DNA from: a virus
Taxonomy: Monodnaviria; Loebvirae; Hofneiviricota; Faserviricetes; Tubulavirales
Virus record (IMG/VR): IMGVR_UViG_2667527953_000001
Length of the DNA stretch: 11,140 nucleotides
Direction: 5' to 3' (one strand)
Part shown: positions 1 through 11,140 of the stretch, piece by piece
Layout: every line of letters starts with the position of its first letter
Numbering within the stretch: the first letter of the stretch is position 1
Made by a program: the position numbers and the translations under genes
The notes under the pieces: model-generated
Told to the model about the DNA's origin: nothing
The model's database searches: none
The model's input: the letters and a program-made list of their open reading frames with translations, nothing else

Positions 1-102
1 AAACAAAACGTTACGGCCACACGGAAGAGGAAGCACGATTTAAAAAATAGCTAAAGGAATGTAGAGTCCCGACAGGATTAACAACATCAGCTCAGAAAAA
101 CC

Positions 103-243
103 ATGCACGACATGATTCTGGATTTACTAATGAAATACCTGATTGCCGGTAGTCTGTTCGGCATGTTTTTGTTCAGCGTCATAACAATAGTGTTGCCAAT
201 CGTCCTGAGGGCACACAATAAAATCAACAGAAGCAACGACTGA
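103..243 (+). CDS. Small hydrophobic membrane protein (46 aa), diverged paralog of the 8919..9074 product
   Basis: ATG at 103, TGA at 241-243; not in ORF track (too short). Translation MHDMILDLLMKYLIAGSLFGMFLFSVITIVLPIVLRAHNKINRSND has one predicted TM segment. Aligns with the 8919..9074 protein (shared ILDLL.K...GS..GM..FS.IT.VLP.V...HNK) although the DNA has diverged, which argues for selection on the protein. No clear Shine-Dalgarno. Confidence 0.4.
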   Translation: MHDMILDLLMKYLIAGSLFGMFLFSVITIVLPIVLRAHNKINRSND

Positions 244-252
244 ATGCACAAC

Positions 253-280
253 AGTGCGCACAATGGCGTTATGTATAAAA
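253..280 (+). promoter_or_regulatory. dif-like Xer recombination site (arm A of composite attP)
   Basis: AGTGCGCACAA-TGGCG-TTATGTATAAA resembles E. coli dif GGTGCGCATAA-TGTATA-TTATGTTAAAT (XerC arm, central region, XerD arm). Identity with copy 2 starts abruptly at 251. Confidence 0.55.
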
Positions 281-317
281 AGGCCGCTGCGGTGGAAAGT
301 ATCGCAGCGGCCTTTTC
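277..317. terminator. Bidirectional rho-independent terminator hairpin inside attP
   Basis: AAAAA-GGCCGCTGCG-(11 nt loop)-CGCAGCGGCC-TTTT: 10-bp GC-rich stem (282-291 / 303-312) flanked by an A-run and a T-run; lies between convergent pIV (minus) and the small ORF (plus). Confidence 0.7.
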
Positions 318-318
318 A

Positions 319-348
319 ACATAACGCATGTCACATTATGCGCACTGA
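319..348 (-). promoter_or_regulatory. Inverted dif-like site (arm B of composite attP)
   Basis: Minus strand reads AGTGCGCATAA-TGTGACA-TGCGTTATGT. The XerC-like arm (336-346) is complementary to 253-263 with one mismatch, and 319-326 is complementary to 267-274, so the single strand can fold into a forked hairpin. Confidence 0.5.
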
Positions 349-396
349 CGTTGTGGTAGGTAAACTGAGATGCCGCGTCCTGATAATCCCGGTCGG

Positions 397-992
<596 letters not shown>

Positions 993-999
993 GTTATAC

Positions 1000-2440
<1,441 letters not shown>

Positions 2441-2456
2441 CGGAGTGTCCTCTGTC

Positions 2457-3671
<1,215 letters not shown>

Positions 3672-3684
3672 TTACCCCGCAAAA

Positions 3685-4044
3685 TTACTTGCCAACATTA
3701 AGCCCATTTGATTTAAATAAATCATAAACCAATCGATACACTCTATCCTTATAAAGATATATGTATGAAATAAATTGAACATGGAGGATGATATTAAAGC
3801 AGTACTGAATATTTAAAGGCAGGTAACTGAATGCAACTACAATAACATCGAGTTTATTAACATCGGAGATTTGACGAATAATAAAATTGACGGCAGATAC
3901 AAGAGCATAATATGAAGTGTAGCAAAGACCAAGATAAGAAAGGAGCTTAGCCCATGCAACAGCTTTATCACCGATAACTCCTGCAATGAAACGTAGTGAT
4001 TTTAAAACAACATCAACAAAAAAAGCACCTAAAATGGCCCACAT
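3685..4044 (-). CDS. Minor coat protein pVI-like (119 aa, hydrophobic)
   Basis: Sits between pIII and pI as in Ff; ATG at 4044 overlaps the pIII TGA (TGATG), suggesting translational coupling; hydrophobic with several predicted TM segments; size close to Ff pVI (112 aa). Confidence 0.6.
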   Translation of the reverse strand: MWAILGAFFVDVVLKSLRFIAGVIGDKAVAWAKLLSYLGLCYTSYYALVSAVNFIIRQISDVNKLDVIVVAFSYLPLNIQYCFNIILHVQFISYIYLYKDRVYRLVYDLFKSNGLNVGK

Positions 4045-5408
4045 CAGAGTTTTACCTCACGTTCAAATAATGTACGGCGAGAAATAACAAAAACGCGTAA
4101 CATGGTTATCATATAAATAGCATATTCAAGAACAGAACGAACATAATCGTCATAAGCTTTTGCAAAATGGCTTGTATCAATCTTGAAATTAATAGCGCCA
4201 ATCAACGGAAGATCAAAGCTAAATTGTAAAATAAAAGGAAGAGCAGTTCCATTATTTGTATTTACCAGTTTGTCAATATTAACTGTAAGCCAATTGTTAT
4301 TATCATGACTCTCACTTCCCTGTCCTGGCAAGTAATGCGAAAGCTCCCCTAAAGGGAAATCCCCATCAGGCAAAGAAGAAGCTATATTCTGACTAATATC
4401 TTTAATACCATTGTCCAGTGAATTTAATGCATTATTCATATCAGCCTGAGAAACAGAAAAAGCATTATTTAAATCATTCACTGACACCCATATTGTTTTT
4501 AACCAGCCCAAAATACCATCAAGCCAGCCATTGTCATCGCCGGATGAGCCACCGGATCCTGAACCTGAACTACCGCTACCGGATGAACCGCCGGAGCCCG
4601 AGCCGGAGCCACCGCTACCGGATGAACCACCGGAGCCAGAACCTGAACCACCACTGCCGGATGAGCCGCCGGAACCCGAGCCGGAGCCACCGCTACCGGA
4701 TGAACCACCGGAGCCAGAACCTGAACCACCACCGGAACTGCCGCCGCCTGGGTTACCACCACCGGAACTGCCACCACCTGAGCTACCGCCATCCTCCTTA
4801 CCATCGGAGAATGCAGGATCTACAGCAACTGGTTTCCAGTCGGCAGTACAAACTGTATCATCATCGGGATTACAAATAAGAGGATTACCGGTTGCCTCAT
4901 AAATACACCCCTGCACATTAACATAACGGGTCCCGTCATCACCTTTATAAACATCAGAAAAAGTCATACCATCAAGAACCGGACGAGAAAGACAAATCTC
5001 GTCAGTTGGCGGCTTATTATATTCAGGTGTCAAATCCCCCTCACCACCCTGAAAAGCAAGGGTGCAGGCTGTCCACTTTTGCTTGTCTGAATCCCAGACT
5101 TTATATGCTGACCACCGGGCACGGACAAAAGACCCGACAGTCGAAGGTGCATTAACAGGCGTTGAAAGTGGCACACCACAATAATGAATTATTCCGGAAC
5201 ATGCGTCATAACTGCCCGAACCACAGAAAAGATGACCGGCCGCCCTGGCTAATTTAATCGACGTCCCCGCGTCCGAATAATCTGTCCTGCAGGATGAATG
5301 GCCTGCACACTGAACAAGTGCATCCGGATTTTCTTTCTCTTCAGCGAAAGAAAACGAGGAAAAGAACAAAAACAGAAGCGGAATAATAAAGTGAATCAAA
5401 CAAAACAC
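4044..5408 (-). CDS. Minor coat / adsorption protein pIII-like (454 aa)
   Basis: N-terminal signal-like hydrophobic segment, Cys-rich N-terminal domain, about 100-aa Gly/Ser linker (GGSGSGSGGSSGSGG units) and a C-terminal domain with a hydrophobic anchor, immediately after pVIII. The 5408 start is GTG with the AGGA directly adjacent; TTG three codons downstream has better spacing, so the exact start is uncertain. Confidence 0.7.
   Translation of the reverse strand: MFCLIHFIIPLLFLFFSSFSFAEEKENPDALVQCAGHSSCRTDYSDAGTSIKLARAAGHLFCGSGSYDACSGIIHYCGVPLSTPVNAPSTVGSFVRARWSAYKVWDSDKQKWTACTLAFQGGEGDLTPEYNKPPTDEICLSRPVLDGMTFSDVYKGDDGTRYVNVQGCIYEATGNPLICNPDDDTVCTADWKPVAVDPAFSDGKEDGGSSGGGSSGGGNPGGGSSGGGSGSGSGGSSGSGGSGSGSGGSSGSGGSGSGSGGSSGSGGSGSGSGGSSGSGSSGSGSGGSSGDDNGWLDGILGWLKTIWVSVNDLNNAFSVSQADMNNALNSLDNGIKDISQNIASSLPDGDFPLGELSHYLPGQGSESHDNNNWLTVNIDKLVNTNNGTALPFILQFSFDLPLIGAINFKIDTSHFAKAYDDYVRSVLEYAIYMITMLRVFVISRRTLFEREVKL
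4496..4800 (-). repeat. Internal direct repeats encoding the Gly/Ser-rich linker of pIII
   Basis: About 78-bp repeating units (for example ccgctaccggatgaaccaccggagccagaacctgaacc at 4613 and 4691); this explains the spurious Pro/Glu-rich antisense ORFs at 4418..4902. Confidence 0.8.
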
Positions 5409-5421
5409 TCCTGGTATGATT

Positions 5422-5443
5422 AAAAAAGCGCCCCGGAGGGCGC
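5422..5443 (-). terminator. Rho-independent terminator downstream of the major coat gene
   Basis: Minus strand reads GCGCCC-TCCG-GGGCGC followed by TTTTTT, 17 nt after the pVIII stop; Ff phages have an analogous terminator after gene VIII. Confidence 0.6.
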
Positions 5444-5459
5444 TGTCGTTAAATAACTA

Positions 5460-5720
<261 letters not shown>

Positions 5721-5726
5721 TTAAAA

Positions 5727-5897
5727 TTAATTAACAGCATCACTGAACATCCGGCAGACCAGAGTGAAAATAACACCAAGACCAAAGCCAAGAAGCCAGC
5801 AGACAATCCAGACATAAAGAACGGACCAGTAAAGCTCCCCGTCCTGTACGCCAGAATTCAGTGCGGATAAAACACCGCTGAAATCAAATTCAGTCAT
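5727..5897 (-). CDS. Small hydrophobic protein (56 aa), candidate minor coat protein (pIX/pVII role)
   Basis: ATG at 5897 overlaps the end of the upstream small gene (ATGACTGA); one TM segment (WSVLYVWIVCWLLGFGLGVIFTLV); position just upstream of pVIII as in Ff. The ORF-track start at 5930 is GTG. Confidence 0.45.
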   Translation of the reverse strand: MTEFDFSGVLSALNSGVQDGELYWSVLYVWIVCWLLGFGLGVIFTLVCRMFSDAVN

Positions 5898-6030
5898 AAT
5901 AACGCTGAACAGTAATGCTTTGTGAGTCACAGGCGCGAATCAGTTTTATTCCGATGCCAAAACCTGAAGAAAATAAAATCATTGCAGGCGCAGCAAATAA
6001 AACAAAGTTCAGAAAATCAGCGTCAGACAT
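5890..6030 (-). CDS. Small hydrophobic protein (46 aa), candidate minor coat protein (pVII/pIX role)
   Basis: ATG at 6030 lies 4 nt after the TGA of the 141-aa ORF, with AAGGAAAAAGG upstream; TM segment FLNFVLFAAPAMILFSSGFGIGI. A longer form from ATG 6084 would sit inside the upstream gene and is less likely. Confidence 0.45.
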   Translation of the reverse strand: MSDADFLNFVLFAAPAMILFSSGFGIGIKLIRACDSQSITVQRYYD

Positions 6031-6034
6031 ATCA

Positions 6035-6460
6035 TCAGCCTTTTTCTTTACCTGCGGGCAGTGCACCCAGCGGCTGACCGTCAAAACGTTTCATGGAGCC
6101 GGAAATAAAACGATACCAGACACCATGACGTTCTGAGCCTGTCGCCCATGAGTTAACATCCACCGTGAGATAAACAGGTTTGCCCTGCAAATCAGGACAT
6201 GAATTAAAAAATTTAAAATCCTCCTCAGTACAGGAAAAGCGCTCATGCTCCTCACGGCGGACTTTTAATTTTCGGTCCTCATACGGATAGGCAATAACAA
6301 TGGCATATTTGGGTTTAGCCTCAGGGTTATAATGAGAACCCGTGGGTTTTAACTCCTCATCATTTATGACAGTGACGTGAATAAAATATCCCGCCATTGT
6401 CATGCCTGAGGTAAAACCCTCAGGGGAAGGAAACGGAAAACTGTCGTAAATTTGATTCAT
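6035..6460 (-). CDS. 141-aa protein in the gene-V position; possible ssDNA-binding protein, function uncertain
   Basis: ATG at 6460 with GAGGAG 8 nt upstream, directly after the replication gene. Contains LQGKPVYL, reminiscent of the QGKPYSL segment of Ff gVp, but it is much longer than typical gVp (87 aa). Confidence 0.5.
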   Translation of the reverse strand: MNQIYDSFPFPSPEGFTSGMTMAGYFIHVTVINDEELKPTGSHYNPEAKPKYAIVIAYPYEDRKLKVRREEHERFSCTEEDFKFFNSCPDLQGKPVYLTVDVNSWATGSERHGVWYRFISGSMKRFDGQPLGALPAGKEKG

Positions 6461-6490
6461 AAATCAGACTCCTCAATGTTAAAAATTCAG

Positions 6491-8638
<2,148 letters not shown>

Positions 8639-8827
8639 ATGAGCAGGAAAAGTATTGGTATAAGCAACGAGAGATATCTGAGAATAGAAAGAGCAGCCGT
8701 AGATATCACAGCCAAAACAGGAAAAGTCACAAAATGGTCGGAGATCGTGAATTATCTGATAGATGAATATTTAAACGATGCAAAACAAGATATGATTTCG
8801 AAAAATGAAATTACACAAAAAAAATAG
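8639..8827 (+). CDS. Small ribbon-helix-helix-like DNA-binding regulator (62 aa), candidate phage repressor
   Basis: ATG at 8639 with AGGAG 8 nt upstream. N-terminal KSIGISNERYLRIERAAVD...KWSEIVNYLIDEYL fits a beta-strand plus two helices as in Arc/CopG/MetJ. Divergent from the replication gene, like rstR versus rstA in CTXphi. Confidence 0.65.
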   Translation: MSRKSIGISNERYLRIERAAVDITAKTGKVTKWSEIVNYLIDEYLNDAKQDMISKNEITQKK

Positions 8828-8918
8828 TAATCACAAAACGATTTGGCGATTGCTAGAAGAGCAAAAAGTACCACCCGTGGTACAAAAGTGCAGTATTACA
8901 TGATTGCTAAAAAGCAAT

Positions 8919-9074
8919 ATGCAGACAACCAGTGACTTAATTCTTGACCTGCTGATAAAGCATTTTGTTGTTGGCAGCATCACAGGCATGACAATATTCA
9001 GCCTGATAACGCTTGTCCTACCGTTGGTGATGACCATACACAACAAACTAAGTAAGGACACTGAAATCCTTTAA
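8919..9074 (+). CDS. Small hydrophobic membrane protein (51 aa) between regulator and attP
   Basis: ATG 8919 to TAA 9072-9074, not in ORF track. MQTTSDLILDLLIKHFVVGSITGMTIFSLITLVLPLVMTIHNKLSKDTEIL has one TM segment; paralog of the 103..243 product. Confidence 0.5.
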   Translation: MQTTSDLILDLLIKHFVVGSITGMTIFSLITLVLPLVMTIHNKLSKDTEIL

Positions 9075-9079
9075 GGTTC

Positions 9080-9107
9080 AGTGCGCACAATGACGTTATG
9101 TATAAAA
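9080..9107 (+). promoter_or_regulatory. dif-like site (arm A of attP, copy 2)
   Basis: AGTGCGCACAA-TGACG-TTATGTATAAA; same as 253..280 apart from one central-region difference (TGACG versus TGGCG). Confidence 0.55.
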
Positions 9108-9144
9108 AGGCCGCTGCGGTGGAGAGTATCGCAGCGGCCTTTTC
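9104..9144. terminator. Bidirectional terminator hairpin inside attP (copy 2)
   Basis: Same hairpin as 277..317 (one loop SNP, GGAGAG versus GGAAAG). Confidence 0.7.
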
Positions 9145-9145
9145 A

Positions 9146-9175
9146 ACATAACGCGTGTCACATTATGCGCACTGA
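9146..9175 (-). promoter_or_regulatory. Inverted dif-like site (arm B of attP, copy 2)
   Basis: Counterpart of 319..348 with one SNP (ACGCGTG versus ACGCATG). Confidence 0.5.
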
Positions 9176-9226
9176 CGTTGTGGTAGGTAAACTGAGATGC
9201 CGCGTCCTGATAATCCCGGTCGGCAC

Positions 9227-11140
<1,914 letters not shown>

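Follow-up and report, generated by a model that had tools for sequence, protein, structure and literature searches.

The window analyzed here is the complete 11,140-bp contig CDQU01001424.1 of assembly GCA_000936775.1, so the sequence upstream of its position 1 is absent from the record. The contig holds tandem copies of an 8.8-kb filamentous prophage, here called phage B, of a type that integrates at E. coli dif. Left of the first copy lies sequence that matches the end of a different filamentous prophage, phage A, and the alleles at the locus are called A-type or B-type after the two phages. The features are as follows.

1..34, no strand: contig-end sequence matching nothing, in place of the GC-rich block of relatives
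35..102, + strand: conserved leader of the A-type small-ORF module, including TAG 48-50; 100% identical to phage A (locus L001, from 14001)
103..243, + strand: gene for a small single-pass membrane protein, A-type allele, 46 aa (homology to 8919..9074; codon-position bias)
252..347, no strand: putative CTX-type attP, two inverted dif-like sites plus a GC stem-loop (predicted DNA fold; arm matches)
253..279, + strand: dif-like site 1, XerC and XerD arms matching E. coli dif at 9/11 and 8/11
282..312: GC stem-loop between the dif-like sites
314..346, - strand: dif-like site 2, XerC and XerD arms matching E. coli dif at 10/11 and 9/11
348..9174, - strand: phage B copy 1, an 8827-bp unit (ORF list and repeat analysis)
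2457..3668, - strand: Zot/pI gene of copy 1 (this and the next three from ORFs and Pfam tags of identical or related genes)
4044..5408, - strand: pIII gene of copy 1, Gly/Ser-rich
5460..5720, - strand: pVIII, the major coat gene of copy 1
6491..8491, - strand: Phage_GPA-type replicase gene of copy 1, 666 aa
8639..8827, + strand: regulator gene of phage B in the RstR position, 62 aa, phrog_2503, ribbon-helix-helix-like
8919..9074, + strand: small membrane-protein gene, B-type allele, 51 aa
9079..9174, no strand: hairpin attP that closes phage B copy 1 and adjoins copy 2, which begins at 9175

Phage B is 99.3% identical to a prophage of E. coli strain 100416, where two tandem copies occupy dif beside hipBA, and relatives are found in about 100 complete E. 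coli genomes. Its Zot reaches at most ~33% identity to any deposited phage, and the window had no megablast match in the phage collection, from which YpfPhi and CUS-1Phi are absent. The 62-aa regulator was assigned to phrog_2503 (E = 1e-28), a family whose source names include RstR, repressor-like and TraY. Its AlphaFold model (pLDDT 93) has a strand-helix-helix layout; a fold search returned non-significant matches only, all of them ribbon-helix-helix proteins, and querying PDB sequences with a profile of the regulator gave no match. A direct repeat of 22 nt (GTGCAATTGTGCA...TGCAA, 86% identical) at 8517-8538 and 8569-8590, between the replicase gene and the divergent regulator gene, is a candidate pair of operator sites.

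Several further repeats and rearrangements were observed within the phage B copies. About 905 bp of the secretin gene, the equivalent of 9363..10267, are gone from copy 1 (536-970), and the 5' end of the gene is retained there as three direct 145-bp repeats. With its secretin gene largely deleted, copy 1 cannot make secretin; the deletion may be a genuine rearrangement or have arisen in assembly. A 339-bp unit located between the secretin and Zot genes occurs 4.2 times in copy 1 (1031-2443) and at least twice in copy 2 (10474-11140). Over its full length the unit shares 99.7% identity with a segment of a 363-kb plasmid of Citrobacter youngae, and its first ~70 nt match more than 5000 small ColE1-like plasmids at 80 to 93%. 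These ~70 nt correspond to the conserved region next to the ColE1 origin where the primosome assembles (PriA/n'), so the repeat may be an amplified complementary-strand origin. Finally, 39-nt repeats at 4540-4773 encode the Gly/Ser linker of pIII; B prophages that are nearly identical elsewhere have pIII proteins of 385 to 454 aa.

The attachment hairpin and the position of the junction

The original prediction described the DNA left of position 251 as only weakly similar to the right-hand copy, and alignment bore this out: within the ORF, 75 of 132 positions match (57%), and the spacer at 51..102 aligns no better than chance (34 matches, against 34.7 +/- 2.4 in shuffled sequence). Identity then jumps from ~57% to 97% at 251/252, with 93 of 96 positions identical between 252..347 and 9079..9174, followed by complete identity between 348..535 and 9175..9362 (188/188). 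A sharp break at a dif-like arm, as had been proposed, is therefore present, but the arm is only half of a complete 96-nt double-dif hairpin. The abrupt rise in identity is explained by constraint from the host recombinases, which keeps the hairpin almost the same in all of these phages; the adjoining gene on the left is a diverged allele of long standing. We conclude that 251/252 is the left edge of the conserved attachment hairpin. The real inter-element junction lies ~95 nt to the right of the apparent break, at ~346/348. Prophage borders in dif arrays are routinely mis-called.

The two dif-like sites of the hairpin have spacers of 5 and 11 nt, versus 6 in dif. The predicted single-stranded fold of 252..347 has an energy of -39.8 kcal/mol (z = -9.5 for the + strand; 0/200 shuffles as good), the - strand gives z = -11.3, and the predicted hairpin carries a 6-nt bulge at its central region. 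With inverted dif-like sites, predicted pairing and noncanonical spacers, the region has, judged from sequence, the makeup of a CTX-type attP, as published for CTXphi attP(+). Integration of the CTX type uses folded single-stranded DNA and XerC and is irreversible, in a class that includes YpfPhi and CUS-1Phi (PMC4246890). By analogy with that work, the noncanonical spacers would leave the duplex prophage unable to be excised by Xer. The two hairpins of the window differ at three positions; position 266 is G, as in hairpins of the A type and of a further element, C (see below), whereas B-type hairpins have A.

The small membrane-protein gene

The ORF at 103..243 had been predicted to encode a homolog of the right-hand small membrane protein, and comparison at the protein level with 8919..9074 confirmed the homology (22/44 residues identical, or 50%; 36/44 positives; E = 5e-17). 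The right-hand ORF specifies 51 aa from the conserved ATG, or 56 aa if begun at the TTG at 8904. Between the A and B alleles, 17, 9 and 32 differences fall at codon positions 1, 2 and 3, respectively; 27/30 synonymous sites differ versus 31/108 nonsynonymous sites (0.91 and 0.28 differences per site), and dN/dS within allele classes is 0.14 to 0.56. Because substitutions pile up at third codon positions, we conclude that 103..243 is a real gene under purifying selection. Both proteins have a single strongly hydrophobic 19-residue stretch between an acidic N terminus and a basic C terminus (maximum 19-aa hydropathy of 2.49 for the 103..243 product). No clear Shine-Dalgarno sequence precedes 103..243, and scans for promoters and terminators were uninformative, with no promoter predicted.

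The gene occupies a constant place. Regulator, small membrane ORF and attP hairpin follow one another in that order, the small ORF on the same strand as the regulator gene, and they do so likewise in the retrieved loci L001, L013 and L026-L036; in the window the stop codon of the small ORF at 103..243 lies 9 nt before the hairpin. The protein had no family match in Pfam, PHROG, NCBIfam or PADLOC, and a profile search of 1.84 billion representatives recovered only its own clusters, P0002 and P0003 (1e-25 and 1e-23). In the RefSeq records examined, the gene is left unannotated. A protein identical to the 103..243 product was present in 82 index blocks, each in a phage A context.

Because the ORF lies beside a dif-like sequence, the original prediction had offered the host as its possible source, in the form of a chromosomal homolog in the dif-proximal region. 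That position is the only point in favor of a host gene. Host sequence from both sides of the array was joined into an empty-site query and compared with 5426 complete E. coli genomes. In 5382 of these, including K-12 MG1655, dif runs straight into the hipA-side flank with no such ORF between them. The ORF itself is found in only about 16 complete genomes, the phage hairpin following each time, and it was seen exclusively inside filamentous elements or as an IS3-disrupted plasmid remnant. A host origin is thereby refuted.

Regarding function, our favored guess is that the protein might be a lysogen-expressed factor that excludes superinfecting phages, although we rate this as less likely than not. 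The guess is prompted by the co-orientation of the gene with a repressor-like gene and against the replication and assembly genes, together with the single-pass topology of the product and an allele that tracks the phage core rather than the regulator. Small, conserved and membrane-bound, the protein is a candidate for immunity or exclusion among dif phages that could be tested at little cost.

Origin of the left flank

To identify the source of the left flank, we compared it with complete genomes and viral contigs. Bases 35..347 share 99.4 to 99.5% identity with the right terminus of phage A, a dif-integrated filamentous prophage of E. coli and Shigella, with matches in 15 complete E. coli genomes and many Shigella assemblies. 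Phage A, ~7.95 kb long, encodes a replicase of the Rep_trans type along with a Zot, a pIII and a secretin of its own. The same interval matches, at 88% identity, the end of a satellite-like element of 3.66 kb, element C, which encodes a gene II/X-type replicase and a single-strand-binding protein, is present in at least four tandem copies in strain cM8a, and closes every copy with an A-type module. In element C a second double-dif hairpin was seen ~100 nt downstream of the first (L013 12398-12480; L036 593-700), giving two attachment-type structures in tandem. For the leader (35..102), identity is 88% both with element C and with remnants on plasmids. The latter were found on p2017.17.03CC_2 and six other E. 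coli plasmids of ~90-170 kb, which carry a GC-rich block and the first ~25 codons of an A/C-type small ORF, cut by IS3 (L014 4860-5125); these copies are a remnant of the cassette outside dif.

Arrays in other strains show how such ends are joined. E. coli O166:H15 JNE21-003 has two tandem copies of phage A between dif and hipA, with this end module at both the A-A junction and the A-host (hipA) junction. There, the module ends in ...cattatgcgcac, followed either by tg and the next phage or by c and the host; in the window, ...cattatgcgcac is followed by tgacgttg and then phage B, in agreement with these junctions. In L001, a 27/28 match to dif stands left of the array, at 6332..6359, and the hairpin-host junction is on the right. 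Strain E300010 carries a B prophage and then a truncated phage A ending in the A-type module, and the IMG/VR contig L031 contains a B-to-A junction. The reverse arrangement, an A-type end leading into B, was absent from all 5426 complete E. coli genomes, in none of which did any place cover 35..400.

On the strength of the identity to the ends of A and C, the junction letters, the state of base 266 and the arrays in E300010 and L031, we interpret the left flank as the terminal module of an A-lineage element. Specifically, 35..347 is probably (probability of about 0.78) the right-hand terminal module of a separate inovirus-type element at chromosomal dif, immediately upstream of the phage B copies, so that the contig samples a heterologous tandem array. 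The original prediction of a third, more divergent element upstream is borne out in substance: matches to the ends of phage A and element C do imply another element, or a remnant of one. What is visible, however, is not a diverged copy of the same phage but the terminal module of another type of replicon. The contig stops at position 1, and no gene of the upstream element is in view.

Left of the leader the resemblance to phage A ceases. In relatives that share 35..251, the 16 nt acgatttaaaaaatag are always preceded by a conserved GC-rich, non-regulator block of ~150 nt, and the regulator gene ends ~290-340 nt further upstream of acgatttaaaaaatag. This block (L001 13880-14000; L013 11880-11995; L014 4880-4990; also L035 and L036) contains an identical 26-aa Arg-rich reverse ORF (MKKIRGGGRRNASRTRPQGRGRERLP) and matched no Rfam family; a forward 65-codon ORF running through the phage A block was considered as a gene and dropped, since its frame is broken in element C. 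The window as a whole gave no Rfam match at gathering thresholds, and the module of a relative gave only spurious hairpin matches. In the window, the place of the block is taken by bases 1..34, which matched nothing in the 5426 E. coli genomes in either near or distant mode, nor in representative genome, metagenome or viral contigs or the fetched loci of relatives. Exact-pattern scans of genome, metagenome and viral contigs with left-end probes of 51, 37 and 22 nt had no match; blastn-short of 1..34 against the fetched loci and the window itself gave chance matches only (best, 18/20 to 1093..1112, E about 4); and the concatenated peptides of all open frames over these bases had no protein match at E<=10. 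Because the GC-rich block is missing over the last 34 nt and 1..34 resemble neither phage A nor element C, the upstream element appears not to be a standard phage A.

These 34 bases might instead have arisen in assembly, as a chimeric or low-quality contig end, in which case the GC-rich block of a standard phage A or of a truncated RS1-like derivative would really lie upstream. Such an origin would account for bases that are unique across all collections searched, in an assembly so fragmented that the contig number exceeds 1400 and in a contig with other odd repeats, among them the threefold 145-bp repeat and the deleted secretin gene. Against it, the remaining contig is at least 99% identical to independent genomes and free of error signs, and the sequence itself bears no mark of a join at 34/35. 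We consider an artefact unlikely.

The original prediction also read the ORF ending at TAG 48-50 as the C terminus of a diverged regulator. Fifteen codons of it are visible, in a stretch where all three forward frames are open over 1..40, and it lies 52 nt from the small ORF, compared with a regulator-to-small-ORF distance of 91 nt in phage B. The visible fragment, TKRYGHTEEEARFKK, lacks the invariant Asp (D51 of the 62-aa regulator, with a DA..D motif near the C terminus) that 35 of 37 diverse family members carry among their last 15 residues. Moreover, none of 125 regulator-family proteins retrieved by a profile search with the fragment added had a C terminus like TKRYGHTEEEARFKK. We therefore regard the regulator reading as unsupported. 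In its favor, the shared 9-mer AAAAAATAG occurs twice versus 0.15 times expected, a count reached in 2/200 shuffles, which is suggestive only.

A regulator ending at 48-50 would fit an upstream genome that is itself B-type or hybrid, having acquired an A-type small-ORF/attP cassette by exchange together with a novel regulator; phages A and C would then keep the last 16 nt as a fossil. The modularity of the locus lends this some plausibility. A single family, phrog_2503, takes in the regulators of phages A, B and C plus two more alleles; at least five alleles were seen, and they assort independently and recombine freely with the rest of the module, as in L028, which combines an A-type regulator with a B-type small ORF. 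In addition, the ORF ends in ...FKK*, resembling the Lys-rich tails of known alleles, AAAAAATAG precedes the two small ORFs by similar distances, and hybrid genomes arise from tandem CTX arrays, according to work cited in PMC7307601. However, besides the missing Asp and the 0/125 result, no protein containing the fragment peptide was found, and the small-ORF allele follows the replicase without exception in 13 tabulated loci: B-type with Phage_GPA at every locus examined, A/C-type with Rep_trans or gene-II replicases. A recombinant B genome upstream is in our judgment quite unlikely, and we retain the interpretation of the left flank as the end of a separate A-lineage element.

Array formation and relation to known dif phages

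How an A-lineage element and phage B would come to lie head to tail can be outlined by analogy with CTXphi. The terminal module at 35..347 consists of the leader, the gene for the 46-aa inner-membrane protein (A allele class) and the 96-nt attachment region with its two inverted dif-like sites. These two sites would pair in the phage single-stranded DNA to form a forked hairpin that mimics dif, and XerC would exchange one pair of strands between the hairpin and the host dif. Replication would then fix the insertion and regenerate an intact dif on one side, at which the next element could enter. Since the hairpin of each incoming single-stranded genome would recombine with whichever end of the array has the intact dif, unrelated phages that use the same host Xer system would stack head to tail. 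Successive entries would leave every unit closed by its own regulator, small membrane protein and hairpin, with the left end of the next phage directly after, which is the arrangement present here at ~346/348.

Tandem and mixed arrays at dif have been described for CTXphi/RS1, YpfPhi and UPphi (PMC4266046; PMC7307601; PMC4246890), and the present arrangement is an ordinary heterologous prophage array at dif. Current understanding is not overturned by the left flank; new here are the A-type-end-to-B junction, the unmatched 34 bases and, as a minor detail, the finding that a gene for a small membrane protein is a conserved component of the cassette. The closest parallel in organization is CTXphi/RS1 at dif1 of Vibrio cholerae, which also has (i) a hairpin attP formed by two inverted dif-like sites, (ii) integration at dif in tandem or mixed arrays of full phages and truncated satellites, and (iii) a small repressor gene divergent from the replicase and beside attP, with regulator alleles here varying as rstR does. 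In contrast to CTXphi, the host here is E. coli, the replicases (Phage_GPA, Rep_trans and gene II/X) are unrelated, the phrog_2503 regulator falls outside the classical RstR families, and toxin genes are absent. Moreover, a conserved small membrane-protein gene lies between regulator and attP; in CTXphi, this interval consists solely of the intergenic region ig-1. Mixed arrays at E. coli dif of at least three replicon types with one common attachment cassette mirror CTX/RS1/TLC in V. cholerae, and such arrays are a substrate for hybrid phage formation.

Two enterobacterial groups resemble the locus by their published descriptions. YpfPhi of Yersinia pestis and CUS-1Phi of E. coli O18:K1:H7 are likewise integrated at dif in tandem through CTX-type inverted XerC/XerD sites, and in both the regulator in the RstR position is separated from the attachment site by small ORFs that vary and have no known function (PMC4266046). 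UPphi901-like prophages of Enterobacterales also form tandem repeats at dif in E. coli, with nonidentical copies in each array and reverse-oriented accessory ORFs beside dif (PMC7307601). UPphi is IKe-like, however, and only the gene II/V module of element C resembles that description.

In Vibrio, lysogeny modules are common to unrelated dif-integrating phages (PMC12715192); there, as here, a repressor gene, a second small gene and a dif-like attP travel together between unrelated replicons. The second gene of the Vibrio cassettes encodes a soluble XafT-like regulator, whereas here it encodes a 46-51-aa membrane protein without detectable relatives outside two protein clusters. An extended and rather improbable reading would have the regulator, small membrane protein and hairpin travel as a portable cassette for lysogeny among at least three unrelated E. 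coli filamentous replicons. Under this reading, the protein may be a novel factor, matched to the phage core, that blocks entry or excludes superinfecting phages, and 1..34 would be the tail of a previously unseen allele with an ancestral compact arrangement. As a separate observation on the regulator genes, the phage B variant of E. coli E300010 has two tandem members of the family upstream of its small membrane ORF (L002 16295-16758), 53% and 93% identical to known alleles.
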